The notes below the pieces were generated by a model that had not been told where the DNA came from, did no database searches, and was given only the letters and a program-made list of their open reading frames with translations. This document shows, in pieces, positions 189-20,000 of a DNA stretch of 20,000 nucleotides. Source of the stretch: an uncultured virus (IMG/VR IMGVR_UViG_3300031784_002630) (taxonomy: Duplodnaviria; Heunggongvirae; Uroviricota; Caudoviricetes); the IMG/VR virus record IMGVR_UViG_3300031784_002630, positions 53,331 through 73,330 of that record; one strand, written 5' to 3'. Positions within the stretch are counted from its first letter, which is position 1; the number at the start of each line of letters is the position of its first letter. Made by a program: the position numbers and the translations under genes.

Positions 189-1202
189 ATGAGAAAAATT
201 TGGCATACAAGAAACGAATTTTTATGGAACGTACCAGCTCAAGAAGTTGGAGATGCGGTATACTTTGATTTGTCAGAATGTTATTCAATGGGCGATGCTC
301 TTTGTTCAACCCCCACTATTAAAAAAGTTTCAGAAGCATATGGTTGTAAGTTAAATCTAATTACGAAACATCCTGAATTGTTTAAACACAATCCATATAT
401 TAAAAACACTTATCGTCCCGATTCAATTAACTTTGACTACCTAAGAGAAAACTTCCTAATCCATAGTTCTTTCTATAATGTTGGTAGACAAAATGATAAA
501 GGAGTTCAGTCAAAACATGCTAGAATTGATATTCGTCAATTCCATGCCATGAATTTAGGTTTTAACTTATTACCCACTGAAATGGAATGTGAATATTATT
601 CAGACCCATTTGAACCTATTGAAGGTTTACCTGAAAAATATGTATTGATACATCCAGCAACCACGTGGCAATCTCGTACTTGGGATTTTGATAAATGGCA
701 ATCAGTAACAACCAAATTAAATGAAATGGGAATTGCTGTTGTTTCAATTGGTAAAGACACAGATGAAGTTGGTTTTTGGCATATTGAAAAGAAAGGATTT
801 GATATTGATATTAAATTAGGGTTGAACTTAATGAATCAAACAAATATCTCTCAGGCTTGGCATTTAATTCAAAATTCAATTTGTTTTATAACAATGGATT
901 CAGGATTGTTACACTTGGCAGGTACAACAGACGCTCACATTATTCAACTTGGTTCTTCAATTAACCCATATTGGAGGATTCCATATAGAAAAAACTCACA
1001 ACAATATAAGTTTCATTATGTTGGTGGTGGTTGTGATATATTTTGTGCTTCAGAATTAAAATATGGTATTGAGGAGTGGGGTTCAATTCAAGGTGTTGCA
1101 CCTTTGATTAATTGTTTAGAGAAAAAAGAAACTTTTGAATGTCATCCGAGTGATGAACAAATTTTCAAAAAAGTAATAGAAATTTATGGAACAGGAAATT
1201 AA
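189..1202 (+). CDS. GT9-family (ADP-heptose transferase-like, GT-B) glycosyltransferase with C-terminal Cys cluster
   Basis: GT9 motifs SMGDALCSTPTIK, YVLIHPATTWQSRTW and FITMDSGLLHLAG; C-terminal CDIFC...C...FEC. Confidence 0.85.
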   Translation: MRKIWHTRNEFLWNVPAQEVGDAVYFDLSECYSMGDALCSTPTIKKVSEAYGCKLNLITKHPELFKHNPYIKNTYRPDSINFDYLRENFLIHSSFYNVGRQNDKGVQSKHARIDIRQFHAMNLGFNLLPTEMECEYYSDPFEPIEGLPEKYVLIHPATTWQSRTWDFDKWQSVTTKLNEMGIAVVSIGKDTDEVGFWHIEKKGFDIDIKLGLNLMNQTNISQAWHLIQNSICFITMDSGLLHLAGTTDAHIIQLGSSINPYWRIPYRKNSQQYKFHYVGGGCDIFCASELKYGIEEWGSIQGVAPLINCLEKKETFECHPSDEQIFKKVIEIYGTGN

Positions 1203-2376
1203 AATAAAAGTAGATTTTCATCTTGGCGCCAAAGTTGAGATTGTTGGTGTTCCCGATAAGGAATATCCTGAAGATGAAACTTATGAAGTTTTATTCTTAG
1301 ATAATAAAACAAATAAACTTTTACATTCAGACACTTTAAAACCAAATTATTGGACAAAAACCGCAATCAATTATTATGTTGAATGGAAAGTGGTTGTTAT
1401 GAAAAATGGTTTGGGAATTATTCATGAGGAAGTTTTAGATTTAAAAGATAAAGATGTATTAATCGCAATTACAAACACACCAATTGGTGATAATTTGGCT
1501 TGGGTTGAATATGTTAAAGAATTTGGTAAAATTCATAATTGTAATATTACATTCCAAACTTTTATTCCTTCAATATTTGAAAAATCTTATAGTGATTTTA
1601 CAATTGTTCGTGGTGATACTTACGAATTTAATGATTCTAAATTTTACGCAACTTATAAAATATCATACGGCATTCCAAATGAAGAACATATCAATTTACG
1701 TAAGTTATTATTTAAGAAAAAATATCTTCATTTTGATGACTTAACATATTGGAAAAAAAATGAATCACCGTATCATCCATCATTAATCCCTCTTCAACAT
1801 TTTGCACCATCAGTACTTGGTTTAGAATTAAAAGAGATGAGACCTCATTTAATTTGTGAAAATAATGAAAGACCAATTCAAAAAAAATATGTCTGTATTT
1901 CTGAATTTGCGTCAGGTGAAATTAAACAATGGAATAATAAAGTTGGTTGGCAAACTTTAGTAAATGAATTAACTTCATTAGGTTATGAGGTGGTTTCAAT
2001 TTCAAAAGAAAAAACTGACTTAAAAAAAGTTACAAAAAGAAATGGTAATTTACCATTAACTGACCGTATGTGGTATCTACATCATTGTGAGTTTTTTATT
2101 GGTGTGAGTTCAGGTCTTGCTTGGTTAGCATGGGCATGTGGTAGAAAAGTAGTTATGATTTCTGGTGTGACAAAAGCAACCAATGAATTTACTGAAGATT
2201 GTATAAGAGTAATCAATGAAGATGTTTGTCATGGTTGTTGGAACTCTGAAAAACATGCCGATAAATTTACTGTGTTTGAAAAAACATTATGTCCCGAAAA
2301 TAAAAACTGGGAGTGTTCAAGAAAAATATCACCAAAAATGGTAATTGATAAAATAAAAGAAAATAATTTAATATGA
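1186..2376 (+). CDS. Aah/TibC-like autotransporter O-heptosyltransferase homolog (standalone)
   Basis: N-terminal DFHLGAKVEI beta-domain, then PIGDNLAW (catalytic Asp), YATYKI, YVCISE..EIKQWNNKVGW, FFIGVSSGLAWLAWA, VVMISG..NEF and CHGCWN...CP...WEC. This is colinear with E. coli TibC/Aah as I recall it. Confidence 0.85.
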   Translation: MEQEIKIKVDFHLGAKVEIVGVPDKEYPEDETYEVLFLDNKTNKLLHSDTLKPNYWTKTAINYYVEWKVVVMKNGLGIIHEEVLDLKDKDVLIAITNTPIGDNLAWVEYVKEFGKIHNCNITFQTFIPSIFEKSYSDFTIVRGDTYEFNDSKFYATYKISYGIPNEEHINLRKLLFKKKYLHFDDLTYWKKNESPYHPSLIPLQHFAPSVLGLELKEMRPHLICENNERPIQKKYVCISEFASGEIKQWNNKVGWQTLVNELTSLGYEVVSISKEKTDLKKVTKRNGNLPLTDRMWYLHHCEFFIGVSSGLAWLAWACGRKVVMISGVTKATNEFTEDCIRVINEDVCHGCWNSEKHADKFTVFEKTLCPENKNWECSRKISPKMVIDKIKENNLI

Positions 2377-3017
2377 CGGATTTTAATAATATAAATTGTA
2401 CTATAAACTTTGTTGACGGTGTTTTTATTAACATATGGGATACTTGGAGTCACAGGTATCTTGTTGAGGTTTATGAAAATTACGGAAATGATTGGGCGTT
2501 GGTCAATCATAACATAATGTCCCCCGAAAATTGGTTTGTACATTTAGGTAAAAAATTTAGAAATCAGTGGAGAGTTAAAATTTGGGGTTGGAAAAATAAC
2601 TATCCAGTATTAGTTACTCAACATACATTTAATGAATCAGATAAAGAAGTAGCCTTAACATTTGATACTGACTCATATAAAGAGTCATGTACGTGGGCAG
2701 AACAATCAATTGATTATCGAGATAAAGTAAGAACAAATCTTACAATATATTCAAAATTTTCAGACAGATTATCACAACAATATGTTGATTCTAAAATAAC
2801 ATTCTTACCTTTAACCGACATTAGTAGATTAAATACAAAATACTATTCAAGATTTAAAATTGGTAGGTTTAACATTAAACGAGAATCTTTAGGTGAATGG
2901 GGAAGTGGTTTTTTATTTTGTAGTAACCATACAAAACCAAACGTATCATCAGAACATAAAAATAACTGGTTACCATTTAACTCAAGAGAACTTTTTAACG
3001 ATATAATGAATTTATGA
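2373..3017 (+). CDS. Truncated TibC-like paralog (N-terminal beta-domain plus degenerate first Rossmann half; probably non-catalytic)
   Basis: INFVDGVFINI...NWFVHLGKKFRNQWRVKI...DKEVALTFDTDS...YYSRFKIG aligns by eye with the N-terminal halves of the 1186 and 12691 TibC-like domains. It lacks the GD motif and the whole C-terminal half. Confidence 0.65.
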   Translation: MTDFNNINCTINFVDGVFINIWDTWSHRYLVEVYENYGNDWALVNHNIMSPENWFVHLGKKFRNQWRVKIWGWKNNYPVLVTQHTFNESDKEVALTFDTDSYKESCTWAEQSIDYRDKVRTNLTIYSKFSDRLSQQYVDSKITFLPLTDISRLNTKYYSRFKIGRFNIKRESLGEWGSGFLFCSNHTKPNVSSEHKNNWLPFNSRELFNDIMNL

Positions 3018-4597
3018 GTACAATTATAGGAATACATCACGGAGGTCACGATTCATCAGTTGCATTAGTAATTGATGGTAAATTAGTTTGTGCTATTGAA
3101 GAAGAAAAATTAACAGGTATTAAAGCAATACATAGTTATTGGGCACACCCAATTAAAGGTTTAGAGTTCATTGAAAAGAACTTTGGTGTTACATTGGAAA
3201 ATTGTGACCATGTTGCTTTTGCATTACCAAAACACTATAAGATTGAAGATGATAACATATGTTTAATTGATAAAACAACTAGTTATTCACACCATAAATG
3301 TCATGCTTTAGGAGCATATTTTACATCAGGATTTGAGGGTAAAGTATTGGCTGTGAGTCATGATGGTCAAGGTAATAGAAGTAGAGGAAAAGTTTACTTA
3401 TGTGACAATGGTGACTATGAAGTTGTTAGTTCACAAAACGTTCCAACAACCACATCATTAGCTGGTTTGTGGGGAAGAGTAACCGTATTACTTGGTTGGC
3501 AGATGTTTAAAGATGAAGGTAAAGTCGTTGGTATGGCATCTCATGGTAAATACAATGAAATGTTGTACAACTATCTTAAACACATTATAAAATATAATGG
3601 TGACTTAACATTTGGACCATCAAATTCTGAAACATTGTTTGATTTTATTTTTGTTGATAAATTAAAAAATTCAGGTTATTTTGATTCTGAAGAAAATAGA
3701 AATGACTTAGCATTTTGTTTAGAAAAACACACCGAAGAATTAATGTGGCAATATCTTAGAGATTTGAAATCCAGATATCCTGATTATAATAAAGTAACAT
3801 TTAATGGTGGTTTATTTGCTAACGTAAAATTAAATCAATCCATCAATAGTTTTAATTTCTTTGAGGAGATTTACATACACCCTTCAATGGGTGATGGTGG
3901 TTTGTCTACCGGTGCTGCGTTGTGTAAAGCAAATGAACTTGGTGAATTGTTATTACCACTTAAATTAGATAATGTATTTTTTGGTTCAGAATTTAATGGT
4001 GACGATTGGATGTCAGAAATAAATAACTATCCAGGTCAAATTTATTTTGAACCTTCTTCACATAGTAGAGTTGCCGAATTAATAGATGAAGGAAAAGTTG
4101 TTGGTTTATTTTATGGTAAAACAGAGTATGGTCCAAGAGCGTTAGGTAATAGAAGTATTGTTACTAGACCTACCGACACCAAAACACACGTATTGTTAAA
4201 TAAAAAATTAAGACGTAATGAAATTATGCCATTTGCACCAAGTGTGTTAAAAGAACATATTAATACTATCTTTCACGCAGATAGGTCACTATACGCAGCA
4301 GAATTTATGACATTGTGTTATGACACCAGAAAAGAATGGGTTGATAAGATTCCAGCAGTTATTCATCCAAAGGATAAAACTGCAAGACCTCAAGCTGTTG
4401 ATAAAAATAATAACCCAAATTTTCATAGTATCATATCAGAATACTATAAGTTATCCGATATTCCTGTTGTATTAAACACATCATTTAATGCTCACGGGGA
4501 ACCAATCAATAACTACCCAAGTCAAGTTATAAAACATTTACTTGAAGGTTGTGTTGATTATATTGCTACAGAACATTTTATTTTTAGTAAGCTATAA
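3014..4597 (+). CDS. O-carbamoyltransferase, NodU/CmcH/TobZ family
   Basis: HDSSVAL, EEK, HHKCHA, DGQG, EGKVVGMASHG, GGLFANVKLN, GDGGLSTGAA, EYGPRALGNRSI, PFAPSV, TARPQ, LNTSFNAHGEPI. Confidence 0.95.
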   Translation: MSTIIGIHHGGHDSSVALVIDGKLVCAIEEEKLTGIKAIHSYWAHPIKGLEFIEKNFGVTLENCDHVAFALPKHYKIEDDNICLIDKTTSYSHHKCHALGAYFTSGFEGKVLAVSHDGQGNRSRGKVYLCDNGDYEVVSSQNVPTTTSLAGLWGRVTVLLGWQMFKDEGKVVGMASHGKYNEMLYNYLKHIIKYNGDLTFGPSNSETLFDFIFVDKLKNSGYFDSEENRNDLAFCLEKHTEELMWQYLRDLKSRYPDYNKVTFNGGLFANVKLNQSINSFNFFEEIYIHPSMGDGGLSTGAALCKANELGELLLPLKLDNVFFGSEFNGDDWMSEINNYPGQIYFEPSSHSRVAELIDEGKVVGLFYGKTEYGPRALGNRSIVTRPTDTKTHVLLNKKLRRNEIMPFAPSVLKEHINTIFHADRSLYAAEFMTLCYDTRKEWVDKIPAVIHPKDKTARPQAVDKNNNPNFHSIISEYYKLSDIPVVLNTSFNAHGEPINNYPSQVIKHLLEGCVDYIATEHFIFSKL

Positions 4598-6558
4598 TGA
4601 ATAACAAGGAAAAACTATTATTTTTTACACCTCACTTATCAACAGGTGGATTACCTCAAGTATTGGTAAATAAAATTTCTTTATTAAAAGATGAATATGA
4701 TATTTTATGTGTTGAACACCATAATCATGCGTGGTTATTTAATGTACAAAGAAATAGAGTATTGGAACTTATTGGTGAAGACAAATTGATTACATTAGAT
4801 GATAGTAGAAGAAAAGAACACTTCACTGAATTACTAACATCGTTTGACCCTGATTTAGTATGTTTAGAAGAATTTCCTGAATATTTTTTAGAGGATGAAA
4901 TAACTGCGGTTGTTTATAACAAACAAAGAAAATATAAAGTATTTGAAACTACGCACGATTCATCATTTCCTGTTCAAAATAAAAGATGGTTTCCTGATAA
5001 ATTTTTATTTGTTAGTCCTTTTAACGCTTTCAGATATTCAGTATATGATATACCATACGAAGTTATTGAATACCCTGTTGATTTCAAATCAAGAGACCAA
5101 GAAAAATATAAAGAATTACTCGGTCTTGAAAAAGATTGTATACACATTGTAAATGTTGGTTTATTTACCCAAAGAAAAAATCAGGGTTATTTGTTTGAAA
5201 TTGCTCGTAAATTACAAGGTCATAAATTTAGATTTCACTTCTTAGGTAATCAAGCTGGTAATTTTAAAGATTATTGGGAACCTTTAATGAATAACAAACC
5301 TGATAACTGTATTGTTTGGGGTGAAAGACATGATGTCTATAACTTTTTACAAGCGGCTGATTTATTCTTCTTCGCATCAAAAGGTGACCGAAATAATAAA
5401 GAATTAAATCCAATTGCAATTAAAGAAGCGTTGGAATATAAAATGCCAATGATGATGTTTAATTTAGATGTTTACTGTGGTAAATATGACATTTATGATA
5501 ACATCACATATCTTACTGGAGATATAAACCAGGATACAAACTTACTACTTAAAAAATTTAACATGGATAATTTACAAAACTTAATGCACATCAGCTACGA
5601 AAAAGATGAAAACAAAATCAATATTTTTTACAGTGGTTACGACCCAATTGATTATAAAGTATCGTTCAAATGTTTAACATCGGGAGCACCAATGTATTGG
5701 ATGAATTTTAAAGCCGACTCACCTTTGGGTTGGTTTGTAATACCAATACCTCAACATATCATAAAGTTCCATCAATTGGCAACTTTTAGAGGTTTCTCAC
5801 TTGATTTTTATGACCAAAATGACAATTTAAAATACAGTCACGAAATTGTTGTAAATGATATTTTTCCAAGATTACCTAAAGTAAATTTTGAACCATTTGA
5901 TTGTTCATTCAGGAATTATATAGAATTCTTTAGTGATGACATTTACGGTAGTTTTAACCTAAATGATATGGATACGGTAATTGATGTTGGTGCTAATATT
6001 GGTTTATTTGCTAAGTACATGTACGCTAAAGACGCTAAAAAAGTTATTTTAGTTGAAGCGAATCCTTTATTGGATAAAAATATTAAAACAGTTTTAGGTT
6101 CTGATTATGAAAAATCACCGGTCTATTTAGCACCTTTAACAGGTAAGAAACAAAACATAAAGTTTCATTACTCAACAAAAAATTCAACAATTGGTACTCA
6201 TACTTTTGATAACTCAAATCCATCGTACAGTGATTTAGATTCAACTATGGACTTAGAAACCATAACATTTGATGAGATTGTTAACGAAAATAATTTAACA
6301 AATATTTCATTATTTAAATGTGATATTGAGGGTGGTGAATATGAGTTAATTGAATCATTAACTGATGAACAAATGAATATGATTGAAAAGTTTATTATTG
6401 AGTTTCATGGTAATAATAATGGTGAATTGATACCAATGGTGGATAAGTTAACTAAATTTGGATTTGAATGTGAATTATTCACACTACATATGACTCGTAA
6501 AGATAGGGTTAGTGTTAATGAACCTCACGGTGTTTTAATCACTAAAAGAAAAAAATAA
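4597..6558 (+). CDS. Fusion: GT4-like (GT-B) glycosyltransferase + beta-rich linker domain + FkbM-family methyltransferase
   Basis: N-terminal part has PHLSTGGLPQ, VGLFTQRKNQ and ADLFFFAS...ELNPIAIKEAL. C-terminal part has VIDVGANIGLF, LVEAN, FKCDIEGGE and IIEFH. Confidence 0.88.
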   Translation: MNNKEKLLFFTPHLSTGGLPQVLVNKISLLKDEYDILCVEHHNHAWLFNVQRNRVLELIGEDKLITLDDSRRKEHFTELLTSFDPDLVCLEEFPEYFLEDEITAVVYNKQRKYKVFETTHDSSFPVQNKRWFPDKFLFVSPFNAFRYSVYDIPYEVIEYPVDFKSRDQEKYKELLGLEKDCIHIVNVGLFTQRKNQGYLFEIARKLQGHKFRFHFLGNQAGNFKDYWEPLMNNKPDNCIVWGERHDVYNFLQAADLFFFASKGDRNNKELNPIAIKEALEYKMPMMMFNLDVYCGKYDIYDNITYLTGDINQDTNLLLKKFNMDNLQNLMHISYEKDENKINIFYSGYDPIDYKVSFKCLTSGAPMYWMNFKADSPLGWFVIPIPQHIIKFHQLATFRGFSLDFYDQNDNLKYSHEIVVNDIFPRLPKVNFEPFDCSFRNYIEFFSDDIYGSFNLNDMDTVIDVGANIGLFAKYMYAKDAKKVILVEANPLLDKNIKTVLGSDYEKSPVYLAPLTGKKQNIKFHYSTKNSTIGTHTFDNSNPSYSDLDSTMDLETITFDEIVNENNLTNISLFKCDIEGGEYELIESLTDEQMNMIEKFIIEFHGNNNGELIPMVDKLTKFGFECELFTLHMTRKDRVSVNEPHGVLITKRKK

Positions 6559-7400
6559 TGAATATTTTTTCATTAAATAGTGTTAACAATAAGGTTACTT
6601 TTAGAACTCACGGTGTTTCTAAAGTAATAAATGATGATGAATTTCCATTAAATGTGTATTTTTCAAAATACATTAATGACGAAATTGTTTGGAAATCAAC
6701 CGCAAATGACAATTGGTTTGTAGATTACAACGATTTTAATTTTAAGAATATTACTGTAACCACTAAATCAGGTAAAACTATTTTTGAGGAAAGGTTCATA
6801 CCAAATAAACAAGATTTTTTACACCAAATATTCTTAACATATTGTTCATCAAACCCTAATAATGTTGGTTTGGCTATAGGAACACATGATGGTGAATATG
6901 GTGAATGGGTACAATCTGTTAAAGAAGGACACACAAACGCAATTCTTGTTGAAGCGTCTGATAAACAATTTAATGGTTTAATAAACAATTATAAATCAAT
7001 TAACAACGTTAAACTAATTCAGTCTTTAATAACACCAAATGGGGATGAAGTTTCTTTCTATGAAAGTGAATCAGGTTATTTTAATTCAACAGATATTAAT
7101 CATTTTGAAAAATTTAATATTACAGATATTGTTGAAACAAGAAAAACATCAATATCGTTAAAAGATTTAATTATAAATAATTTTGATACTAAACCTTTTT
7201 GGATGCACTTAGATGTTGAGGGGTTAGACGCTAAATTAATTTTATCGTTAAAAAATAATACCCATCTGTTATCTGATTTTATTATTTTTGAAAACTCAAA
7301 TATTACTGATGAAGATAATGATGAGGTAAATAATTTTTTATTATCTTTAGGGTATGAACTATTTAATTACGATATTTCAACATTAGCAATTAAAAATTAA
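6558..7400 (+). CDS. FkbM-like (Methyltransf_21) SAM methyltransferase with N-terminal beta-domain
   Basis: IGTHDGEYGE, ILVEAS, HLDVEGLD and IIFEN motifs. Confidence 0.75.
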   Translation: MNIFSLNSVNNKVTFRTHGVSKVINDDEFPLNVYFSKYINDEIVWKSTANDNWFVDYNDFNFKNITVTTKSGKTIFEERFIPNKQDFLHQIFLTYCSSNPNNVGLAIGTHDGEYGEWVQSVKEGHTNAILVEASDKQFNGLINNYKSINNVKLIQSLITPNGDEVSFYESESGYFNSTDINHFEKFNITDIVETRKTSISLKDLIINNFDTKPFWMHLDVEGLDAKLILSLKNNTHLLSDFIIFENSNITDEDNDEVNNFLLSLGYELFNYDISTLAIKN

Positions 7401-7402
7401 AT

Positions 7403-8047
7403 ATGGCAAACGGAGTTTATAAAATAACAGATGACTTTGAAAAAGAACTTGGTAGATATACTGGAGCACCTTATGTTGTTACATTAGATAACATGAGTAA
7501 CGCATTATTTTTAGCATTGTATTATGAAAAAAATATAACCAAATCAATTCAAAGTGAAAAAATATCAATACCAAATAGAACATATCCTTCAGTTCCTTGT
7601 GAAATAATACACGCAGGATTAAAAGTTGATTTTATACCTGTTGATGGAAAAACAATTAAAGGTTCTTATCAATTAATTGGTTCAAATGTTTGGGATTCAG
7701 CATTGTCATTTACTGCTGACATGTATAAACCAAATAGTCACATGTGTATTTCATTTACAGGACCATATAAACACTTTAAACTAAGTAAAGGTGGTGCAAT
7801 ACTAACAGATAGTTTAGATGCGTATCACTGGTTTAAACGAGCAAGATATAGTGGTAGACGTGAATGTTCATATCATGATGATAACTTGGATATGTTAGGT
7901 TGGAACTTTTATATGATGCCTGAGTTAGCAACACGTGGTTTACTACTAATGAATCAATTCTATAATATTGATGGTACTAAAAAACAAAATAATGATTTAG
8001 AATTACCATATCCTGATTTATCAAAATTTGAAATTTATAAACAATGA
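7403..8047 (+). CDS. Short DegT/DnrJ/EryC1/StrS-family PLP sugar aminotransferase
   Basis: FEKELGRYTGAPYVV, SNALFLAL, WDSA, SFTGPYKHF..KGGAILTD (candidate PLP Lys) and GWNFYM; only 214 aa. Confidence 0.8.
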   Translation: MANGVYKITDDFEKELGRYTGAPYVVTLDNMSNALFLALYYEKNITKSIQSEKISIPNRTYPSVPCEIIHAGLKVDFIPVDGKTIKGSYQLIGSNVWDSALSFTADMYKPNSHMCISFTGPYKHFKLSKGGAILTDSLDAYHWFKRARYSGRRECSYHDDNLDMLGWNFYMMPELATRGLLLMNQFYNIDGTKKQNNDLELPYPDLSKFEIYKQ

Positions 8048-8616
8048 TTAAAGTTTTAGTTGGTAATGGTGGTCACGCTCGTGAAGTTATGTCACAAATG
8101 GGTGTTAAATTAAAAAGATTTGTTGATGACGAATATGTTAACTCAGATACATTACCATTATCTTCATTACAACCTGATAAACATGTTGTAATGGTTGCAG
8201 TTGCAAACTCTAAAGATAGATACGATATAATACAAAGATTACCAAAAAACACAAAATATTTTACATTCATACATCCCACAGCTATTATCATGGATGATGT
8301 AGAAATTGGTGATGGTAGTTTTATTGGTGCTTATTCAATATTAACAACTAATATTAAATTAGGTTCACACACATTATTAAATCGTAGTAACCATATTGGT
8401 CATGATTGTATCATTGGTGATTATTTTAGTGCAATGCCAGGTTCTATTGTTTCAGGAAATGTCACAATAGGTGATAAAGTTTATTTAGGAACTAATTCAT
8501 CAATTAAAGAAAAATTATCAGTTGTTGATAATGTAACAATAGGTTTAAACACTGGTATTGTTAAAAACATTAATAAAGAAGGAATTTACGTTGGAGCAAA
8601 TACAAGAATGTTATGA
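8044..8616 (+). CDS. NeuD/PglD-family sugar acetyltransferase (left-handed beta-helix)
   Basis: GNGGHAREV N-terminus, IHPTA, hexapeptide repeats (IGDGSFIGA, IGDKVYLG) and HIGHDC catalytic His. Confidence 0.9.
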   Translation: MIKVLVGNGGHAREVMSQMGVKLKRFVDDEYVNSDTLPLSSLQPDKHVVMVAVANSKDRYDIIQRLPKNTKYFTFIHPTAIIMDDVEIGDGSFIGAYSILTTNIKLGSHTLLNRSNHIGHDCIIGDYFSAMPGSIVSGNVTIGDKVYLGTNSSIKEKLSVVDNVTIGLNTGIVKNINKEGIYVGANTRML

Positions 8617-11128: not shown

Positions 11129-11129
11129 A

Positions 11130-11702: not shown

Positions 11703-12694
11703 AACAAGAAAAAATATTAATCAATATTAATAATATTGATGTTGAAACTGCTATAAATAATGCAATTTTAAAAATTAATTTTACAACATTAGGGTTAAAT
11801 GACCAACAACAAACAATATCTGTAAAGATATCAGACCCGTATTTTGATATACCATACTCACCCGAAATTATTAATGTAAATTGTATTGATGGTCCAAATT
11901 ATTTTGTTAATTTTACGATTGGTAGTCATTTTGGGAAACATAATAGATTGGGTTTTAAAGGTGGGGTACATTTAAGATGTTATATAGAAGATTATTTAGT
12001 TTTTGAAAAAAAGTTTTTCTTTTATAAGAACTATCTACCATTAAGAAACATATCACAACAATATCCAATGAATTATAAACGATTATGGATTATTGGTGAT
12101 TCAAATGTGTGGGGAACTTTTGGTAATGATGAGTACACCCCTGAACCAATACATGATTATTTACCCATAAGGTATAGTCACCCCTCACTAAGTTTACATA
12201 GATTTTTAAATAAAGATAATAAATCATTTATTGATTTATTACCCATAGAAGATGGCGATATTATAGCCTTTTATTTAGGTGAAATAGATACTAGATATGG
12301 TCTACCTAAATCATCTCAAGAAAAAAATACTTCAATTTCTCATTTAACAAATAAGTTATTATTTAAATATAAAGAATTTCTACAGACTTTTATTTCCAAA
12401 CATCCAAATAATAAAGTGATTGTTATGTCCCCAAACCCACCAATTAAAAATGGTTTAATTGATGAAGAAAAAGAACGTCAATTAATTAAAGGAACAAATA
12501 ATGAAAGAAAATATTGTGTTGATTCATTTGATGAGTTTTTTTCTAATGAAAATTTTCTATATTTTAATTGGAAAAAAGATTATACTGATAATTTTGGGTT
12601 TGTTGACCCAAATTTTTTATTTGATAATGATTTTCACATAAAAGAATATAACCAAATATTAAAATCATTTAGCGAATTTATTAAAACAATATGA
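11696..12694 (+). CDS. SGNH/GDSL-like esterase or acyltransferase with N-terminal beta-rich domain
   Basis: IIGDSNV (block I Ser), LGEIDTR (block III-like) and DNDFH (DxxH block V). Confidence 0.6.
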   Translation: MLKQEKILININNIDVETAINNAILKINFTTLGLNDQQQTISVKISDPYFDIPYSPEIINVNCIDGPNYFVNFTIGSHFGKHNRLGFKGGVHLRCYIEDYLVFEKKFFFYKNYLPLRNISQQYPMNYKRLWIIGDSNVWGTFGNDEYTPEPIHDYLPIRYSHPSLSLHRFLNKDNKSFIDLLPIEDGDIIAFYLGEIDTRYGLPKSSQEKNTSISHLTNKLLFKYKEFLQTFISKHPNNKVIVMSPNPPIKNGLIDEEKERQLIKGTNNERKYCVDSFDEFFSNENFLYFNWKKDYTDNFGFVDPNFLFDNDFHIKEYNQILKSFSEFIKTI

Positions 12695-14796
12695 AAATAA
12701 CACAAGTAACACCAGGTCTTATATCAATACCTCCAAATGGTTGGGGAGCAATTGAAAAAGTAATATGGAACTATAAACTTCAATTTGAAGAAATGGGTCA
12801 CGTATGTGATATTAAATACTTAAATGATGTTGATGTAAATAATACAGATATCATTCATTTACACGTTGCCAATTTAGGTATTGAAGCTCAAAAAAGAGGT
12901 ATACCATACATCTTTTCATTACATGACCATCATGTTGTTAGACATGGTAAAGATTCTCATACATATAAACAAAATTTAGAAGCCATTAAAGGTTCAATAG
13001 TATCCTTTACACATGCAGAATTTTTAGTTGATTACTTTGAGGAAACTGATAAGTTATTTTATTTAACACATGGTGTTGATACCAAGTTTTTTGATTTACC
13101 TTATAAGGAAGATTTTAAACACAAATTATTATGTATAGCAAATAATGGTTATGCTGATGACCAAACCATAGATAGAAAAGGATTTAGATACGCTATTGAA
13201 GCCGCTAAAGAATTAAACATGGATATTACAATTGTTGGTCCTCCTAACAATATGAATTTTTTCAACGCAAATCCTGATTTATTGGAGTACGGTAAATTAA
13301 ACATAATTTCTCACAATCCAAGTGAAGAAGAATTATTAAAAATAATTGAAGAGCATTCAATATTCCTTCACCCATCAGAATTGGAAGCTGGTCACCCAAA
13401 TTTAACATTATTGGAATCAATTTCATGTAGAGTACCTGTTGTTGGGACATATGATGGTAACCACAAAATTGAAGGTTTGTATAAAGTAGAAAGGTCAACT
13501 GAATCAGTTAAAAAAGGTATATTGGAAGTTATTGAGAACTATGCTCATTATATGATTAATACCGAAATTGATAGAAAATATTATGATTGGTCAACAGTTT
13601 GTACAAGATTGTTAAACATGTATGGTGATGTTCTTAAAATACAAAAAGAATATACTTCTGATATTACCAAAAATTTATTTATTAAAGCGTTTAACGAAAC
13701 AAAAGATTTAAAACCAATGTTAAATGAAAAATTGGCAATAAATGTACATTTTGTTGATGGTCCAACTGTTGATGTTCAAAGTAATCTTGACGATGAATAT
13801 ACCGTAGATTTTTTTGAAGATGATAACACACTAACATATACTTCAAAAATAAGAAGTAATATGTGGACAAAATCAAATAAGAAATTTCATAAAGATTGGA
13901 GAATCAGAGTTTCTAATTCATCAGGAACAATACTTAACCGTAAGTTTCCTTTTGAAGGTATGAGAGTTTATATTGCAATTGATTCAAGTTCGTTAGGTGA
14001 TTCAATTGCTTGGGTACCATATGTTGATGAGTTTAGAAAAAAACATAAATGTCATGTGATTTGTTCAACTTTCAAGAATTTTTTATTTGAAAAATCATAC
14101 CCTGAAATTGAGTTTGTTACGCCAGGTATTGAAGTTAAAAACATATACGCAATGTATAAGTTGGGTTGGTTTTATAATCGTGATTTAGAACCTACATTAC
14201 CTAATACAATACCATTACAACAAACCGCTAGTAATATTCTTGGGTTAGAATTTAAAGAAATTAAAACAAATATTGATTTTATACCAAAAGAAAAACCTTA
14301 CCCTGAAAAGTATATTTGTATTGCAACCAACTCAACCGCTGGTTGTAAATATTGGAACAATCCAACAGGATGGGTTGATTTAATTAGACATTTTAAATCA
14401 TTAGGATATAAAGTAATTAATATCTCACAAAATGGTGATAAATACGAAGGTGCCGATTCATTAGAAGATGACTCAATTGATAATACAATGAATGTAATTT
14501 ATCACAGTCAATTTGTTGTCGGTCTTTCAAGTGGATTATCTTGGTTAAGTTGGGCTTTAGGTAAACACGTTGTGATGATTTCTAATTTTACAGAACCTGA
14601 CCATGAATTTACTTCAAATTGTACAAGGATTATAAATATGTCAGTATGTAATGGTTGTTGGAATAATCCCATGTTCTTATTTAATAAAGGAGATTGGAAT
14701 TGGTGTCCTGAACATAAAGATACTGAAAGACAATTTGAATGTCATAAATCTATAACCGCAGATATGGTTATATCACAAATACAAAATTTATTATGA
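12691..14796 (+). CDS. Fusion: GT4 glycosyltransferase + Aah/TibC-like O-heptosyltransferase
   Basis: N-terminal GT4 has IPPNGWGAIEK, HGVD, RKG and HPSELEAGHPNLTLLES. From about 13732 come HFVDGPTV, SLGDSIAWVPYVDEF, YICIATNSTAGCKYWNNPTGW..LI.HFKSLGYKV, GLSSGLSWLSWA and CNGCWN...WCPEHKDTERQFEC, very close to the TibC motifs. Confidence 0.9.
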   Translation: MKITQVTPGLISIPPNGWGAIEKVIWNYKLQFEEMGHVCDIKYLNDVDVNNTDIIHLHVANLGIEAQKRGIPYIFSLHDHHVVRHGKDSHTYKQNLEAIKGSIVSFTHAEFLVDYFEETDKLFYLTHGVDTKFFDLPYKEDFKHKLLCIANNGYADDQTIDRKGFRYAIEAAKELNMDITIVGPPNNMNFFNANPDLLEYGKLNIISHNPSEEELLKIIEEHSIFLHPSELEAGHPNLTLLESISCRVPVVGTYDGNHKIEGLYKVERSTESVKKGILEVIENYAHYMINTEIDRKYYDWSTVCTRLLNMYGDVLKIQKEYTSDITKNLFIKAFNETKDLKPMLNEKLAINVHFVDGPTVDVQSNLDDEYTVDFFEDDNTLTYTSKIRSNMWTKSNKKFHKDWRIRVSNSSGTILNRKFPFEGMRVYIAIDSSSLGDSIAWVPYVDEFRKKHKCHVICSTFKNFLFEKSYPEIEFVTPGIEVKNIYAMYKLGWFYNRDLEPTLPNTIPLQQTASNILGLEFKEIKTNIDFIPKEKPYPEKYICIATNSTAGCKYWNNPTGWVDLIRHFKSLGYKVINISQNGDKYEGADSLEDDSIDNTMNVIYHSQFVVGLSSGLSWLSWALGKHVVMISNFTEPDHEFTSNCTRIINMSVCNGCWNNPMFLFNKGDWNWCPEHKDTERQFECHKSITADMVISQIQNLL

Positions 14797-15173
14797 ATAT
14801 AGAAGTATCACATGGAGAAATTGTTGACAAATTAACAATTCTTCAAATTAAAAAGGAAAATATTACCGACCCAAATAAATTAGATAACATCATAAAAGAG
14901 TATGAGTATCTTTTATCTGTGGTTGAAAATGATTTGGGTATTTCAACTTTATCACCTGAGTATTTAGAATTATTGTCAGTTAATAAAGACCTTTGGGTTA
15001 TTGAAGATGATATTAGGGACAAAGAAAGACAAAAAGAATTTGATGAAGAATTTGTTAGTCTTGCTCGTTCAGTTTACTATACTAATGATGTTCGTGCTAA
15101 AATTAAAAAAGAAATTAATTTGAAGTTTTCTTCAGGATTTATTGAAGAAAAATCTTACAGTGATTATCTGTAA
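14793..15173 (+). CDS. DUF6165-like small helical protein
   Basis: VSHGEIVDKLTILQIK...LWVIEDDIR...FDEEFVSLARSVYYTNDVRAKIKKEIN...IEEKSY pattern. Confidence 0.7.
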   Translation: MNIEVSHGEIVDKLTILQIKKENITDPNKLDNIIKEYEYLLSVVENDLGISTLSPEYLELLSVNKDLWVIEDDIRDKERQKEFDEEFVSLARSVYYTNDVRAKIKKEINLKFSSGFIEEKSYSDYL

Positions 15174-15763
15174 GGTGTTCCACCTACCCAAAATACCAAA
15201 CTTTTTCTAATACCTTTTGTTACGGGTGTAACCCTATGCATAATACAACTTGGGAATATTGTCATACTATATTGTTTTCTTTCCACTGTTTTAATCTCAC
15301 CACCAGGCCATAGTTCCAAATCACCACCTTCATATTCGTCAGGATTTGTTAACAGTACCGACATAGACACTTTTCTTTGAGCACTAGGACCATGTCCTGT
15401 ATCTATGTGCCAACCATATTCACCATCGTCTTCATATTCAGTGTATTGAATAGGTTCTCTCGCCATAATTAATTCAAAATTCCAAAGTTGACCATTAACT
15501 GATTGGATGATTTTCATTAATTTGGTAAATAACCACATAGTTTCATTTGTTGGGTATATCCATTTAACATTACTTTTTCTAACATCTTTGTTAACCTCAC
15601 CAACAAAATTTTCATTTACAATTCTTCCTTCTTCATACTCTAAAGAATTAATTATATTAATTAATTCATCAATTTCAGGTTGTGAAAATTGGTCATCAAC
15701 ATTTGCGTGCTTACCTATATCAATTGTTGGTGGGTATGGAAATATCGGTATTTTACTTGACAT
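15164..15763 (-). CDS. 2OG-Fe(II) oxygenase (prolyl-4-hydroxylase/PKHD-like)
   Basis: WHID (HxD), RKVSMSVLL, YEGGDL and FPS..MHRVTPVTKGIRKSLVFWV (distal His and Arg). Confidence 0.9.
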   Translation of the reverse strand: MSSKIPIFPYPPTIDIGKHANVDDQFSQPEIDELINIINSLEYEEGRIVNENFVGEVNKDVRKSNVKWIYPTNETMWLFTKLMKIIQSVNGQLWNFELIMAREPIQYTEYEDDGEYGWHIDTGHGPSAQRKVSMSVLLTNPDEYEGGDLELWPGGEIKTVERKQYSMTIFPSCIMHRVTPVTKGIRKSLVFWVGGTPYR

Positions 15764-15769
15764 AAATAA

Positions 15770-15799: not shown

Positions 15800-15812
15800 T
15801 TGCAAATTAAAA

Positions 15813-16427
15813 TTATGAAACTCTAATGTAAACAGTCCCACCATTTGCAACATTAATAATTGCTCCGGTAGTTAATAGACCCGGAAATGTAGTTGGTGAA
15901 CCAGGAAAAGCGGTGAAACCAGCACCAGTGTCATAATCAACATTTACCGCTGGTGTAAATGGTGGTGCACCAGCATTTAAATTAACCTGTAAATCTATTT
16001 GATACCAATGGGGTTGGTTACCAGCGGTCCCCCCTCGAATCATTGCATTAATTTGTGTTTGTGTATCAGCGTTTGGTCCACTATTTGAACCGCTAGCCAA
16101 AACAGTTGCATCATTAATTGTCACATCAATAGTTGATACCCAACTAGGTGTTCCTGATTGGAATTGAATGTCATAATAACTCTCAGAATCTATATCATAA
16201 AACATTGATATAGATGCGTTTTGTGTTACTGCACCTCCAGCAGGACTTGATGGTAAAGGATAAAATGCTGGATAAAATGTATAGTCATTAATAAAACCAT
16301 CATCATATATGTATGTTGCAAAATCATACAATCCAATATCAATATTAGGCGTAAAGTTAACCTCAGCCCTAATATTATCATAACTAATAGGATTACCGGG
16401 TGATGCTGGTCCTGGTGGTGTTGCCAT
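15813..16427 (-). CDS. Hypothetical Gly/Pro/Thr-rich protein, probably virion or fibre-associated
   Basis: N-terminal P..G.PISYDNIRAE resembles N-termini of phage fibre-associated proteins. It has no Lys, looks beta-rich and lies downstream of the fibre gene. Confidence 0.55.
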   Translation of the reverse strand: MATPPGPASPGNPISYDNIRAEVNFTPNIDIGLYDFATYIYDDGFINDYTFYPAFYPLPSSPAGGAVTQNASISMFYDIDSESYYDIQFQSGTPSWVSTIDVTINDATVLASGSNSGPNADTQTQINAMIRGGTAGNQPHWYQIDLQVNLNAGAPPFTPAVNVDYDTGAGFTAFPGSPTTFPGLLTTGAIINVANGGTVYIRVS

Positions 16428-16433
16428 ATTCTA

Positions 16434-16745
16434 TTAACAATCAACTGTTGATGATGGTCCGTAAATACTTTGCAAATGAGTTCTTAATTCAGAATACCCC
16501 GCTGAAAAGATATCAGTAGTTTCAAATGAAGTAAAACTACTAACCTTTTTATATACATAATTACCAATTTGTTTATTTGTCACAATATTGTCTTTATTGT
16601 TTTTATCTACTTCTGAGTTATAAATTTCTAACCCAAATCTAACAGCATTGTTGGATTTATCAATTAAATAAGTACCTATTCTTACATAGGCTTCAGTGGT
16701 GATTCCACCACTGGTTCCTATTTGTGTTGTTACTTTTATAGCCAT
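16434..16745 (-). CDS. Hypothetical protein (possible fibre accessory or assembly protein)
   Basis: 103-aa ORF starting 1 bp after the fibre stop codon (MAIKVTTQIGTSGGITTEAYVRI). Confidence 0.6.
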   Translation of the reverse strand: MAIKVTTQIGTSGGITTEAYVRIGTYLIDKSNNAVRFGLEIYNSEVDKNNKDNIVTNKQIGNYVYKKVSSFTSFETTDIFSAGYSELRTHLQSIYGPSSTVDC

Positions 16746-16746
16746 T

Positions 16747-19700
16747 TTATTTCTTTTCTAATTCTTTAATTTTATTGTTCAATTCTTGAATTGATTGGAT
16801 TAGGAATGGTACCAATCTTTCGTATGACACTGTTTTATATAACTCCTCATCACCTGTTTGAAGTAATGTTGTATTTGTAACGATTTCAGGTATTATTTTT
16901 TCAACTTCTTGAGCAATTAATCCAAAGTCATTTCCTCTTCTCATAACATCTTTCCAAGTATATGACACAGGTCTTAATTTTTCAATAATACCTAAACTGT
17001 TTTCAAGAGTTTTAACATTATCTTTTAATCTTTCATCTGATGGTGTTGTTGAATATCCAATAATGTTCGCAGTTGCGTGGAAATCACCATATCCACCATT
17101 GTTTGTCATTCTGAACATTTCAGTTCCGTTCAATGAGTATCCAAGATATGAAGTTCCACTGTTGAATATACCTGTGTTTGTATTTGCCGTCCATGAGAAT
17201 GATGGTGCTCCTGCCGAACCTGAAACTCCTGACCTGTAACCCGCGCAGTTGTGGACAAACGAATCCGAACCTTTAATGAATAGACAACAAGATGATTGTA
17301 TTTGTGAACCATTCACTGCGTATACGATATACAAATCAGATACGTTATTACATGTGAATGAACCACCGCTAATACCTGAAGTACCACTTGGACCACTTAA
17401 TCCTGAAGAACCTGTTGTACCTGAAGTACCGCTAGTTCCTGAAGTTCCTGAACTTCCTGAAGTTCTTGATGCCCCTGATGTACCCGCATTTCCTGATGAA
17501 CCCGCTGAACCTGATGTTCCACTTGTACCTGAAGTTGCTGACGCTCCTGAAGCTCCCGCAGCTCCTGATGAACCTGCAGTTCCTGAAGTTCCTGATGAAC
17601 CTGAAGTTGCCGATGAACCTGCAGTTCTTGATGCTCCTGATGAACCTGCAGTTCCTGATGTACCGCTTGAACCTGAAGTTGCTGATGCTCCTGACGCTCC
17701 TGATGAACCTGCAGTTCCTGAAGTTCCTGATGAACCTGAAGTTGCAGATGCTCCTGATGTTCCAGCGTTTCCTGATGCTCCTGACGTACCACTTGTACCT
17801 GAAGTACCTGATGTTGCTGATGCTCCTGACGCTCCTGATGAACCAGCAGTTCCTGATGTACCTGAGGTACCTGATGTTGCCGATTGTCCTGACGCTCCCG
17901 CAGCTCCTGATATACCTGAAGTACCACTTGAACCTGATGTTCCTGATGTACCGCTAGTTCCTGAAGTTGCAGATGCTCCTGATGTTCCAGCGTTTCCTGA
18001 TGCTCCTGACGTACCTGAAGTTCCACTTGTTCCTGAAGTTTGAGATGCTCCTGACGCTCCTGCGGAACCTGATGTACCTGAAGTTCCACTTGTTCCTGAT
18101 GTTGCCGATGCTCCTGACGCTCCTGCGGAACCTGATGTACCTGAAGTTCCACTTGTTCCTGATGTTGCCGATGCTCCTGACGCTCCTGATGAACCACTTG
18201 TACCTGATGTACCACTAGTTCCTGATGTTCTTGAAGCTCCTGATGTTCCATCAACACCTGATGTACCACTTGTACCAGATGAGCCGTTTGTTCCTGATGT
18301 TCCTGATGTTCTTGAAGCTCCTGATGTTCCCGCGACTCCTGATGTTCCTGAAGAACCATTTGTTCCTGATGTCGCTGAAGAACCCGCTGAACCTGAAGTA
18401 CCACTTGTACCTGATGTTCCTGATGTTGCCGATGCTCCTGACGCTCCTGCGGAACCTGATGTACCTGAAGTTCCACTTGTTCCTGATGTTGCCGATGCTC
18501 CTGACGCTCCTGATGAACCTGAAGTTCCCGATGTTCCACTTGAACCTGATGTTGCTGACGCTCCTGATGTACCAGCATTTCCTGATGCTCCTGAAGAACC
18601 ACTTGTTCCTGTTGAACCTGAAGTTGCCGATGAACCTGCTGAACCTGATGTTCCCGATGCTCCTGATACTCCTGATGTTCCACTTGTACCTGAAGTTGCT
18701 GATGAACCTGCTGAACCTGAAGAACCACTTGTACCTGATGTACCGCTAGTTCCTGATGTTCTTGAAGCTCCTGATGTTCCATCAACACCTGATGTACCAC
18801 TTGTACCAGACGAACCGTTTGTTCCTGATGTTCCTGATGTTCTTGAAGCTCCTGATGTTCCCGCAACTCCCGATGTTCCTGAAGAACCGTTTGTTCCTGA
18901 AGTTGCTGAAGAACCTGCCGAACCTGACGAACCACTTATTCCTGAAGTACCAGATGTTCCTGAAGTTGCTGAAGAACCTGCTGAACCTGATGTTCCTGAC
19001 GCTCCTGATGTTCCTGAAGAACCTGAAGTCGCTGATGAACCTGCTGAACCTGATGTTCCTGACGCACCTGATGTTCCTGAAGAACCTGAAGTCGCTGATG
19101 AACCTGCTGAACCTGAAGAACCACTTGTTCCGCTAGTTCCTGATGTACCTGAAGTTGCTGAAGAACCCGCCGAACCTGCTGAACCTGATGTTCCTGAAGT
19201 TCCACTTGAACCTGATGTACCTGATGTACCGCTAGTTCCTGATGTTCTTGAAGCTCCTGATGTTCCATCAGTACCAGAAGTACCACTAGTTCCTGATGAA
19301 CCATTTGTTCCTGATGTTCCTGATGTTCTTGAAGCTCCTGATGTTCCCGCAACTCCTGATGTTCCTGAAGAACCATTTGTTCCTGAAGTTGCCGATGAAC
19401 CTGCCGAACCTGATGAACCACTTATTCCTGAAGTACCAGATGTTCCTGAAGTTGCAGATGAACCTGCTGAACCTGAAGAACCACTTGTTCCGCTAGTTCC
19501 TGATGTACCTGAAGTTGCTGAAGAACCTGCTGAACCTGAAGTTCCGCTAGTTCCGCTTGAACCTGATGTACCCGATGTACCGCTAGTTCCTGATGTTCTT
19601 GAAGCTCCTGATGTTCCATCAGTACCAGAAGTACCACTAGTTCCTGATGAACCGTTTGTTCCTGATGTCCCTGATGTTCTTGAAGCTCCTGATGTTCCCG

Positions 19701-20000
19701 CAACTCCCGATGTTCCTGAAGAACCGTTTGTTCCTGATGTTGCTGAAGAACCAGCCGAACCTGAAGTTCCACTCGTTCCTGAAGTCGCCGATGAACCTGA
19801 AGTTGCTGAAGAACCTGCTGAACCTGATGTTCCACTTGTTCCTGAAGTTGCTGAAGAACCTGAAGTCGCTGAAGAACCTGCTGAACCTGATGTTCCTGAA
19901 GTTCCACTTGAACCTGATGTTCCTGATGTACCGCTAGTTCCTGAAGTTGCTGATGAACCTGCCGAACCTGATGTTCCGCTAGTTCCTGAAGTTCCTGAAG
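16747..20000 (-). CDS. Long fibre protein (5'-partial, >=1083 aa): Gly-X-Y Ser/Thr-rich repeat shaft + small head + peptidase S74 intramolecular chaperone
   Basis: The track's 195-aa ORF (TTG start) continues upstream in frame: ...[37 protein letters not shown]. The same frame reads SGTSGT at the window end. The C-terminus has [10 protein letters not shown]...LRPVSYTW...[12 protein letters not shown]...[17 protein letters not shown]. Confidence 0.88.
17374..20000 (-). repeat. 9-bp-period coding repeat (about 292 Gly-X-Y triplets: [12 protein letters not shown]) with nested higher-order duplications
   Basis: Gly codons sit at positions congruent to 4 mod 9 at both 17374 and 19993. There are 63-bp tandem units at about 18058-18183 and a ~165-bp module repeated four times. 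Confidence 0.92.

Follow-up and report, generated by a model that had tools for sequence, protein, structure and literature searches.

Can a tailed phage glycosylate its own tail fibre? The question is raised by a 20,000-nucleotide stretch of DNA from an uncultured virus, hereafter the window, which forms the terminal 20 kb (53331-73330) of the 73,330-bp IMG/VR virus record IMGVR_UViG_3300031784_002630. In this window a coupled operon of glycosyltransferase (GT) and sugar-tailoring genes, which includes two domains of the Aah/TibC type, converges on a gene for a Ser/Thr-rich, collagen-like fibre protein. The characterised members of the Aah/TibC (BAHT) family are cytoplasmic protein O-heptosyltransferases (PMC4358343), and an original prediction, made from the sequence letters, proposed that such enzymes prime the fibre with sugars which other operon products extend and finish. 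On balance we favour, with modest confidence, the reading that the locus is an accessory module whose products would glycosylate, inside the host cytoplasm and either ahead of assembly or in its course, the Ser/Thr-rich collagen-like tail fibre that the phage itself encodes.

The basis of this reading is gene content, family membership, conserved residues, the lack of membrane steps and a recurrent linkage to fibre genes; from these we infer which protein is the acceptor, what the sugar is, in what order the steps run and what purpose they serve. Protein glycosylation appears the best reading because the characterised BAHT enzymes act on proteins in the cytoplasm and their genes lie beside an AIDA-repeat gene, because virions assemble in the cytoplasm and the locus is without membrane components, and because the linkage to a repetitive, Ser-rich structural protein survives both divergence and rearrangement. 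Coordinates below are those of the window, except where they are marked as contig coordinates, which refer to the whole record.

Two complete domains of the Aah/TibC family

The TIGR04414 (hepto_Aah_TibC) hidden Markov model (HMM) has a curated cut-off of 200 bits, and both domains exceed it. The first, BAHT-1, is a stand-alone O-heptosyltransferase homologue of 396 residues (1186..2376, + strand) with 246.4 bits. The second, BAHT-2 (about 13732-14796), forms the C-terminal part of a protein with a GT4 N-terminal half (12691..14796, +) and reaches 304.6 bits over residues 347-699; a genome-wide profile search gave 238.6 and 306.6 bits for the first and second domain, respectively. Alignment to TibC (PDB 4RAP) returned E-values of 1.1e-58 for BAHT-2 and 2.8e-36 for BAHT-1, and the two domains are 33-35% identical to plasmid-borne members of the family. 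The original prediction of two complete Aah/TibC-like domains, for which it had proposed this HMM search as a check, is thus borne out, with the catalytic and iron-binding residues kept.

In TibC the catalytic base is Asp110, the sugar and phosphate are bound by Thr226, Lys230, Arg286 and Trp305, and an iron finger is formed by Cys339, Cys342, Cys358 and Cys370 (PMC4358343). Across a 12-sequence alignment, which set the two window domains beside eight homologues from phages or metagenomes and two plasmid-borne cellular members, Asp110, Lys230, Trp305 and all four cysteines are invariant. At the positions of Thr226, Lys230, Arg286 and Trp305, BAHT-1 has S, K, R and W, and BAHT-2 has T, K, T and W.

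Stereoselectivity for heptose is set by Pro300 in TibC (Ser294 in AAH), and an enzyme with Ser at this position takes ADP-D,D-heptose as well as ADP-L,D-heptose (PMC4358343). Position 300 is Ser in BAHT-1 and BAHT-2, as in AAH, and this fits the first gene of the operon, which encodes an ADP-heptose 6-epimerase-like (HldD-like) protein (contig 51982-52788; PF01370 3.3e-25; TIGR02197 7e-55). Its TIGR02197 score of 186.4 bits lies below the cut-off of 274.6, and the next best family is GalE at 1.4e-13. Judged by this family match, a heptose donor would gain support from the epimerase-like gene.

In the cellular plasmid loci the enzyme gene lies directly upstream of an AIDA-repeat protein gene in both of the two examined, and that protein is presumably the substrate of the adjoining enzyme. 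HMM scans found no autotransporter gene in the 73-kb record, where the neighbour is the collagen-like fibre gene. A search for close cellular relatives found a single locus in the genome collection, on a contig of a metagenome-assembled genome, without a collagen-like open reading frame (ORF) nearby.

A Ser/Thr-rich collagen-like fibre with an S74 chaperone

The fibre gene (16747-19998, - strand; Collagen + Peptidase_S74) encodes at least 1083 residues and runs off the contig end. In the visible part, residues 1-880 form a Ser/Thr-rich collagen-like shaft (17359..19998, -; Pfam Collagen, PF01391, E 8e-88), followed by a non-collagen distal domain with matches to tail-fibre PHROGs (residues 881-986; 17041..17358, -) and by a C-terminal S74 intramolecular chaperone domain with the stop codon (16747..17040, -; PF13884 2.9e-16, residues 987-1040). 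The Peptidase_S74 match scores 59.9 bits against a cut-off of 22, and SDERLK, which we take to be the usual S74 motif, sits at the start of the domain; the C-terminal 217 residues of the fibre match tail-fibre PHROGs (phrog_5668 7.8e-32). Since the Collagen, S74 and TIGR04414 scores lie far past their thresholds, the pattern is not due to chance.

Over residues 1-932 the composition is 35% Ser, 28% Gly, 18% Thr and 11% Ala, with 493 Ser+Thr (53%) and about 0.2% Pro. Within the Gly-X-Y triplets X is mostly Thr or Ser and Y mostly Ser, and every six to eight triplets the Gly position is taken, in register, by Ala (ATS) or Arg (RTS), leaving 45 Gly-X-Y segments, mostly of 15-33 residues. On this pattern of residues the repeat is best described as collagen-like with regular in-register Gly substitutions. 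The earlier description of a shaft of more than 870 residues, with Ser/Thr between Gly residues and an S74 chaperone at its end, therefore agrees with the Collagen and S74 matches, but has to be amended in that Gly is regularly replaced by Ala or Arg.

The repeat also leaves its mark on the DNA. Because of it, guanine-cytosine content in the fibre region is 46-49%, against 26-33% elsewhere in the window, and + strand ORFs of 83-264 residues overlap the fibre gene (17249-19937); these most likely arise from the codon repeat opposite them rather than being genes. Eight IMG/VR contigs that are identical to the window over the TibC domain (L007-L014) stop 4.5-5.7 kb beyond it, within the fibre repeat, which in one of them (L009) is divided among three frames. 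As these eight contigs and the window's own record all end inside the repeat, it evidently breaks assemblies, and the N-terminus of the fibre lies beyond the contig end.

Recurrent linkage of TibC-like and S/T-collagen genes

IMG/VR was scanned with the second TibC domain, which returned 55 loci in 30 clusters at 85% identity, with flanks of up to 10 kb. An ORF counted as S/T-collagen when runs of at least five Gly-X-Y triplets made up at least 45 of its residues, with at least 65% Ser+Thr in X/Y and at most 3% Pro. Collagen-like ORFs of any make-up occur at 29 of the 55 loci, and an S/T-collagen ORF lies within the fetched flanks in 15 of the 30 clusters, rising to 14 of the 17 clusters with at least 46% identity to the window. 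As to the three misses, two (L017 and L029) have a downstream flank shorter than 2.4 kb, and in L017 the fibre C-terminal domain is matched at the cut end; the third (L015) has 6.3 kb, in which none was found. The other 12 clusters without an S/T-collagen ORF are more distant (37-44% identity). One 'unlinked' cluster, on a single 24-kb contig (L054/L083), has an S/T-collagen ORF about 16 kb away that is cut by the contig end, and the 10-kb criterion therefore undercounts linkage.

Four relatives are complete (roughly 115 kb), and in all four the largest S/T-collagen gene lies close to the TibC gene, at 0.7, 1.5, 3.4 and 6.4 kb; two of them have no other collagen-like gene. Co-occurrence of the TibC family with Ser/Thr-repeat fibres, the second check put forward with the original prediction, is thus positive by each of these counts.

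The pairing is also found in a cultured phage. Microcystis phage Mel-JY01 (PP395634) encodes a 1226-residue FkbM-GT4-TibC fusion (TIGR04414, 317 bits) whose gene is placed 1.7 kb downstream from an S/T-collagen ORF that lacks annotation, and this ORF spans the record ends (187687 to 3049; 1788 residues from stop to stop) if the record is circularly permuted. The annotation of Mel-JY01 places minus-strand hypothetical coding sequences (1-651, 739-2298) over the + strand collagen-like ORF and has no coding sequence across the last 2.3 kb (187687-190001); the fibre gene seems to be unannotated and split by the record's linearisation. A 735-kb phage (LR756501) likewise carries GT4-TibC and GT4-FkbM genes with a small adjoining S/T-collagen ORF.

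A maximum-likelihood tree of 44 rows was built from one locus per cluster and the extra loci, together with the two copies in the window and two members of cellular origin. Linked loci stand on deep, separate branches of this tree, including those of Mel-JY01 and the 735-kb phage (with the deep order unresolved), and a well-supported clade of 20 rows contains 17 linked ones. Linkage to S/T-collagen genes thus persists through deep divergence and rearrangement.

The count was also made in the reverse direction. A degenerate DNA pattern for (G-[ST]-[ST])x7 gave at least 78 loci on 64 contigs among the matches listed, and among these matches an S/T-collagen ORF is present on 50 contigs, with a TibC homologue within 10 kb in 8 of the 50; for comparison, the whole collection gave 55 TibC loci. 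The eight pairs among the matches listed are convergent in five cases and on the same strand in three, and in one locus (L098) TibC lies 51 bp upstream of the collagen gene.

The same neighbourhoods bear on whether protein glycosylation might be directed mainly elsewhere, that is, to the capsid, the tail, three structural paralogues with CBM/lectin domains, or host proteins. Glycans have been reported on the capsid and tail-tube subunits of mycobacteriophages (cited in PMC12619734), the three paralogous structural proteins are encoded directly upstream of the operon, and many TibC loci have no S/T-collagen gene nearby. A distant TibC locus (L045; 41% identity) has no collagen-like gene and instead carries, about 4.4 kb upstream of the TibC homologue, a 455-residue ORF (4212-5576, +) with long poly-Thr and (T)n-A/E-A-P runs and without a Pfam family, which could be a different Ser/Thr-rich acceptor. 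We nevertheless regard another principal target as quite unlikely, given that no neighbouring structural protein is Ser/Thr-repetitive, that CBM/LamG paralogues are present in just a few related loci, and that the neighbour which recurs across lineages is the S/T-rich collagen-like gene.

Observations that weigh against fibre glycosylation

Several observations weigh against the fibre as acceptor or heptose as donor. Related loci are kin, so that the linkage counts are not independent events; 15 of the 30 TibC clusters have no S/T fibre within 10 kb, and a well-supported clade of six rows in the tree has no linked row at all. The fibre gene is convergent and therefore not co-transcribed with the operon, and the known substrates of TibC and Aah are beta-helical autotransporter repeats, not Gly-X-Y.

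Further doubts come from the fibres themselves. Among the matches listed, 42 of the 50 S/T-collagen contigs have no TibC homologue in flanks of up to 10 kb per side, and the X/Y composition of 23 TibC-linked genes is like that of 37 TibC-less ones: Ser at the Y position is 0.70 in the linked and 0.80 in the TibC-less genes, and Thr at the X position 0.53 and 0.42, respectively. GTs near TibC-less fibres were sought in 147 of the 166 ORFs within 4 kb at 36 unlinked loci (leaving out six ORFs longer than 900 residues and 13 shorter than 150), and a GT family was present at L126 only, plus a weak Anp1 match in L076. The usual neighbours of TibC-less S/T fibres are portal, sheath, tube, chaperone and replication genes. 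Since such fibres are common with neither TibC nor another GT nearby, Ser/Thr richness is not itself a signature of glycosylation, and the TibC module appears to be an addition to a kind of fibre that is widespread. Two broader ideas were dropped on these counts: that fibre composition marks TibC linkage, and that S/T-collagen fibres are as a rule flanked by GTs.

The enzymes and the donor supply raise points of their own. In most phage orthologues of BAHT-2 the Arg286 position is Thr, Val or Ile, and with this residue replaced the donor may therefore not be heptose. The beta-hairpin thumb that builds the dodecamer ring in TibC (tip Phe265/Val266) is shorter by 6-9 residues in both domains, as read from alignments to TibC and an E. 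coli plasmid member. Neither GmhA nor HldE domain II was found in the fragment or in the four complete relatives; with the epimerase-like gene alone present, synthesis of ADP-heptose by phage-encoded enzymes was rejected. Finally, the match of a DegT-like gene in the operon (7403..8047), on which an amino-sugar step would rest, covers just positions 24-104 of the 360-position profile, that is, its N-terminal part.

A phage, not a cellular lipopolysaccharide locus

The original prediction had named one finding that would overturn it, namely that the contig might prove to be a cellular lipopolysaccharide (LPS) locus. That the viral record, and relatives that are complete tailed phages, rule this out follows from their hallmark genes. 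The rest of the record encodes phage-type DNA methyltransferases, HNH endonucleases, a sigma factor, SbcCD, a primase and a RuvC-like resolvase, together with structural PHROGs and three paralogous virion structural proteins. One complete relative (G003; 112 kb, with terminal repeats) has genes for the major head protein, portal, large terminase and DNA polymerase, and its TibC module and fibre gene stand at the end of a long structural gene block. By this gene content the source is a tailed bacteriophage, and probably a very large one, since CheckV puts the completeness of the 73-kb record at about 24%.

A 16-gene operon of glycosyltransferases and tailoring enzymes

Fourteen + strand ORFs (189-15173) are joined by overlaps of 1-17 nucleotides or gaps of 1-2 nucleotides. 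These junctions bear out the coupled 14-gene operon that had been predicted, and the operon proves longer than claimed, with two further coupled genes upstream of the window (contig 51982-52788 and 52785-53495; 16 genes in all). The first of these is the epimerase-like gene; the second encodes a 236-residue FkbM-like methyltransferase (PF05050 2.1e-6) whose 3' end is window 1..165 (+).

The first gene that lies wholly in the window encodes a divergent GT9 of 337 residues (189..1202, +; PF01075 8.3e-16), which is kept at 48-57% identity in related TibC loci. BAHT-1 is followed by a 214-residue protein (2373..3017, +) weakly like the N-terminal part of TibC (profile positions 49-157; TIGR04414 2.4e-5, 23.5 bits; 22.1 bits in the genome search) with no Pfam match, and then by a NodU/NolO-type carbamoyltransferase of 527 residues (3014..4597, +; PF16861 2.2e-51, PF02543 1.2e-29), for which the NodU model gives 5.2e-37 (below its cut-off) and phrog_1601 8.3e-87. 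A GT4-FkbM methyltransferase fusion of 653 residues (4597..6558, +; PF00534 9.9e-8, TIGR01444 1.2e-18) is kept in related loci and precedes an FkbM-family methyltransferase of 280 residues (6558..7400, +; PF05050 3.4e-6). Beyond these lie the DegT-like aminotransferase fragment of 214 residues (7403..8047, +; PF01041 3.3e-10, PseC 2.4e-5) and a NeuD/PglB/VioB-type hexapeptide sugar acetyltransferase of 190 residues (8044..8616, +; Hexapep 2.9e-16; TIGR03570 9.5e-43, 146 bits against a cut-off of 160.8).

In the second half of the operon, a GT2 of 584 residues with a long C-terminal extension (8613..10367, +; PF00535 2.3e-25, residues 4-135) is followed by a 254-residue protein that is possibly a GT2-like enzyme (10364..11128, +). 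The latter is a language-model lead only: its nearest Atlas clusters stand at 0.97-0.98, with PF00535 on 20-25% of their members, and it has a weak local match near the DxD region of the neighbouring GT2 (E 0.14) and no Pfam match. A methyltransferase dependent on S-adenosylmethionine (190 residues; 11130..11702, +; FtsJ 7.3e-6) and a 332-residue protein without family (11696..12694, +; weak GDSL/SGNH leads, 0.85 and E 0.051) separate it from the GT4-BAHT-2 fusion, and the operon closes with a 126-residue DUF6165 protein (14793..15173, +; PF19662 9.6e-10), which occurs in many related TibC loci at 47-58% identity.

The core conserved among relatives consists of GT9, GT4-FkbM, GT4-TibC and DUF6165, often with a 2-oxoglutarate (2OG) oxygenase; compared with related TibC loci, the remaining tailoring genes are particular to this phage. 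Where at least five other GT domains had been announced, HMMs support four (GT9, GT4, GT2 and GT4), the fifth being the GT2-like lead. The tailoring repertoire holds for the carbamoyltransferase, three FkbM domains in the window, the FtsJ-like methyltransferase and the NeuD-type acetyltransferase, but is weak for the amino step, which depends on the DegT fragment.

An operon of this make-up might instead act on the host surface while the phage infects or is in pseudolysogeny, altering the LPS core, O-antigen or capsule, for instance so as to block superinfection; it would then lie next to the fibre gene simply because accessory genes usually cluster at the border of a structural block. This is the main rival, above all for the GT9, GT4 and GT2 enzymes, and we judge it unlikely for the locus as a whole. 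It is the printed reading for GT clusters of jumbo phages and cyanophages, including clusters with carbamoyltransferases, 2OG oxygenases and methyltransferases (PMC7824862). GT9 is the family of LPS heptosyltransferases, and the protein at 189..1202 matches those models weakly, at 1e-9 to 1e-6 and in every case far under the cut-offs; the GT2 protein weakly matches a GtrB-like O-antigen conversion PHROG, and in half of the TibC clusters an S/T fibre is missing from the vicinity. The two best-defined enzymes, however, belong by scores over the curated cut-off to a family whose one known activity is the O-heptosylation of proteins, and the S/T-collagen linkage holds across deep divergence and rearrangement. 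The locus is also without the membrane steps that surface remodelling would call for: HMM scans found no flippase, polymerase, ligase or priming polyprenyl-phosphate transferase family, and none of the 26 locus sequences has a hydrophobic segment (19 residues with a mean Kyte-Doolittle hydropathy of at least 1.6), because of which we take such proteins to be absent from it.

Synthesis of a free glycoside that bears methyl and carbamoyl groups, as a secondary metabolite, or hypermodification of phage DNA with sugars, seems very improbable. The former has been suggested for cyanophage clusters of carbamoyltransferases, methyltransferases and 2OG oxygenases (PMC7824862), and viral GTs that hypermodify DNA are cited in PMC12619734. 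Against both stand the action of BAHT-family enzymes on proteins and the result of the HMM scans, which detected no base-modifying or aglycone-building enzyme in the operon, and neither would explain the conserved linkage to the fibre.

A proposed route to a glycosylated fibre

If the phage does glycosylate its fibre, the steps might run as follows. ADP-D,D-heptose would come from the host, and the phage HldD-like epimerase would turn part of it into ADP-L,D-heptose. Both Aah/TibC-type enzymes would then attach heptose to Ser, and perhaps Thr, of the G-(T/S)-S repeats; the divergent GT9, the GT4 and the GT2 enzymes would extend this primer, and the short glycan would be capped by FkbM and other methyltransferases, the NodU-type carbamoyltransferase and the NeuD-type acetyltransferase. 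The S74 domain would trimerise the fibre and then be cleaved off, leaving a bottle-brush glycofibre. The glycan may stiffen or stabilise a proline-free triple helix, or it may protect against proteases or serve in adhesion. Galactosylated Thr stabilises the cuticle collagen of Riftia.

A bolder version would have a widespread phage system in which iron-finger O-heptosyltransferases of the autotransporter type were re-targeted from beta-helical adhesins to collagen-like, triple-helical tail fibres, producing a mucin-like bottle-brush whose heptose-based glycans bear methyl, carbamoyl and acetyl groups and occupy hundreds of Ser/Thr positions, with the glycan needed to stabilise the proline-free triple helix and to shield. 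We offer this fuller version tentatively, as something possible that we would not yet expect to hold in all its parts.

Should fibre glycosylation prove true, protein hyperglycosylation by BAHT enzymes would extend from a few pathogen adhesins to a broad environmental phage group, collagen-like repeats would be a new acceptor fold for these enzymes, and tailed-phage virion glycosylation would have a second, chemically different case. Some 'LPS-like' gene clusters of large aquatic phages would acquire an alternative reading. The matter bears on the folding stability of proline-free collagen-like fibres and suggests a route to glyco-engineered ones, and it is directly testable, as the cultured phage Mel-JY01 has the same enzyme-fibre pairing.

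Comparison with known systems

The closest known systems are TibC with TibA and Aah with AIDA-I. The window enzymes share with them the family assignment by curated HMM, the catalytic Asp, the Lys that binds phosphate, Trp305 and the iron finger of four Cys; in both cases the enzymes are soluble and cytoplasmic, and the gene lies close to one for a long, Ser-rich, repetitive surface protein. Unlike them, the present enzymes are encoded by a phage, their neighbour is a Gly-X-Y collagen-like fibre with an S74 domain in place of a beta-helical autotransporter, and the hairpin of the dodecamer is shortened; one copy is fused to a GT4 and has lost Arg286, and both are embedded in the 16-gene extension and tailoring operon. 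For AIDA-I and TibA, to our knowledge, only single heptoses are known.

Collagen-like surface filaments that are O-glycosylated in the cytoplasm of the producer have been described in Bacillus (BclA) and in C. difficile (BclA1/BclA3 with SgtA) (PMC8968730; PMC7157674). The BclA systems differ in having unrelated GTs, rhamnose- or GlcNAc-based glycans (the latter N-acetylglucosamine) and Pro/Thr-rich repeats, and in being cellular rather than viral. Mimivirus is alike in that virus-encoded machinery decorates virion fibrils and that its own collagen-like proteins are hydroxylated and glycosylated (PMC8968730; PMC9614988); it differs as a eukaryotic virus whose glycosylation falls on hydroxylysine or on other fibril proteins and relies on other enzyme families.

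Among tailed phages, phage-encoded GTs modify virion proteins of mycobacteriophages, with the glycans on capsid and tail-tube proteins (cited in PMC12619734), so that the earlier statement that nothing of this kind had been described in tailed phages is out of date as regards virion glycosylation. The sites reported for them are at the C-termini of the capsid and tail-tube subunits and not in a repeat fibre; the hosts are Gram-positive-type actinobacteria. The 'LPS/capsule' clusters of jumbo phages and cyanophages resemble the present operon in combining several GTs with a carbamoyltransferase, methyltransferases and 2OG oxygenases in large aquatic phages; the passages on them in PMC7824862 interpret them as host-surface modification and mention no link to BAHT enzymes or collagen-like fibres. 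A literature search, with most subscription journals and supplements outside its range, came upon no account of a BAHT in a phage, nor of a collagen-like phage fibre that is glycosylated. We know of no BAHT-type enzyme in mycobacteriophage virion glycosylation.

Neighbouring genes and minor observations

Between the operon and the fibre gene lie three further genes on the minus strand. One encodes a 2OG-Fe(II) oxygenase of 199 residues (15164..15763, -; PF13640 3.3e-16), and PF13640 oxygenases adjoin S/T-rich collagen-like genes repeatedly, with or without TibC (the window; L062:14545-15126; L102; L136); the fibre has almost no Pro or Lys for the adjoining enzyme. The other two, downstream of the fibre gene, encode proteins without a family, one of 204 residues (15813..16427, -) found in near-identical contigs only and one of 103 residues directly adjoining the fibre gene (16434..16745, -).

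In five of the related loci (L016, L018, L019, L026 and L027) three or four paralogous collagen-like ORFs of 340-440 residues stand between the TibC and S/T-collagen genes. Their X/Y positions hold 8-23% Pro and less Ser/Thr, and they have in common a C-terminal ...KA(I/V)QELD... helix; by composition these arrays are a second, different collagen-like class in the same neighbourhoods.

Upstream of the window, a second group of glycan genes is encoded on the minus strand (contig 37762-44899), with a PF11397 'Glycosyltransferase (GlcNAc)' protein (E 1.1e-70; phrog_24687 2.7e-169), a GT10 fucosyltransferase-like protein and an HtrL/YibB-like protein; no homologue was found in related loci. We take PF11397 to be the family of cytoplasmic polypeptide GlcNAc-transferases, and if this identity is right the protein would be a second type of protein-glycosylating enzyme in this phage. 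The three paralogous structural proteins (contig 45170-51959, -; 709-728 residues) are transcribed divergently from the glycan operon and carry CBM_4_9 and ConA-like lectin (Laminin_G_3) domains, which makes it possible that they are carbohydrate-binding receptor-binding proteins.

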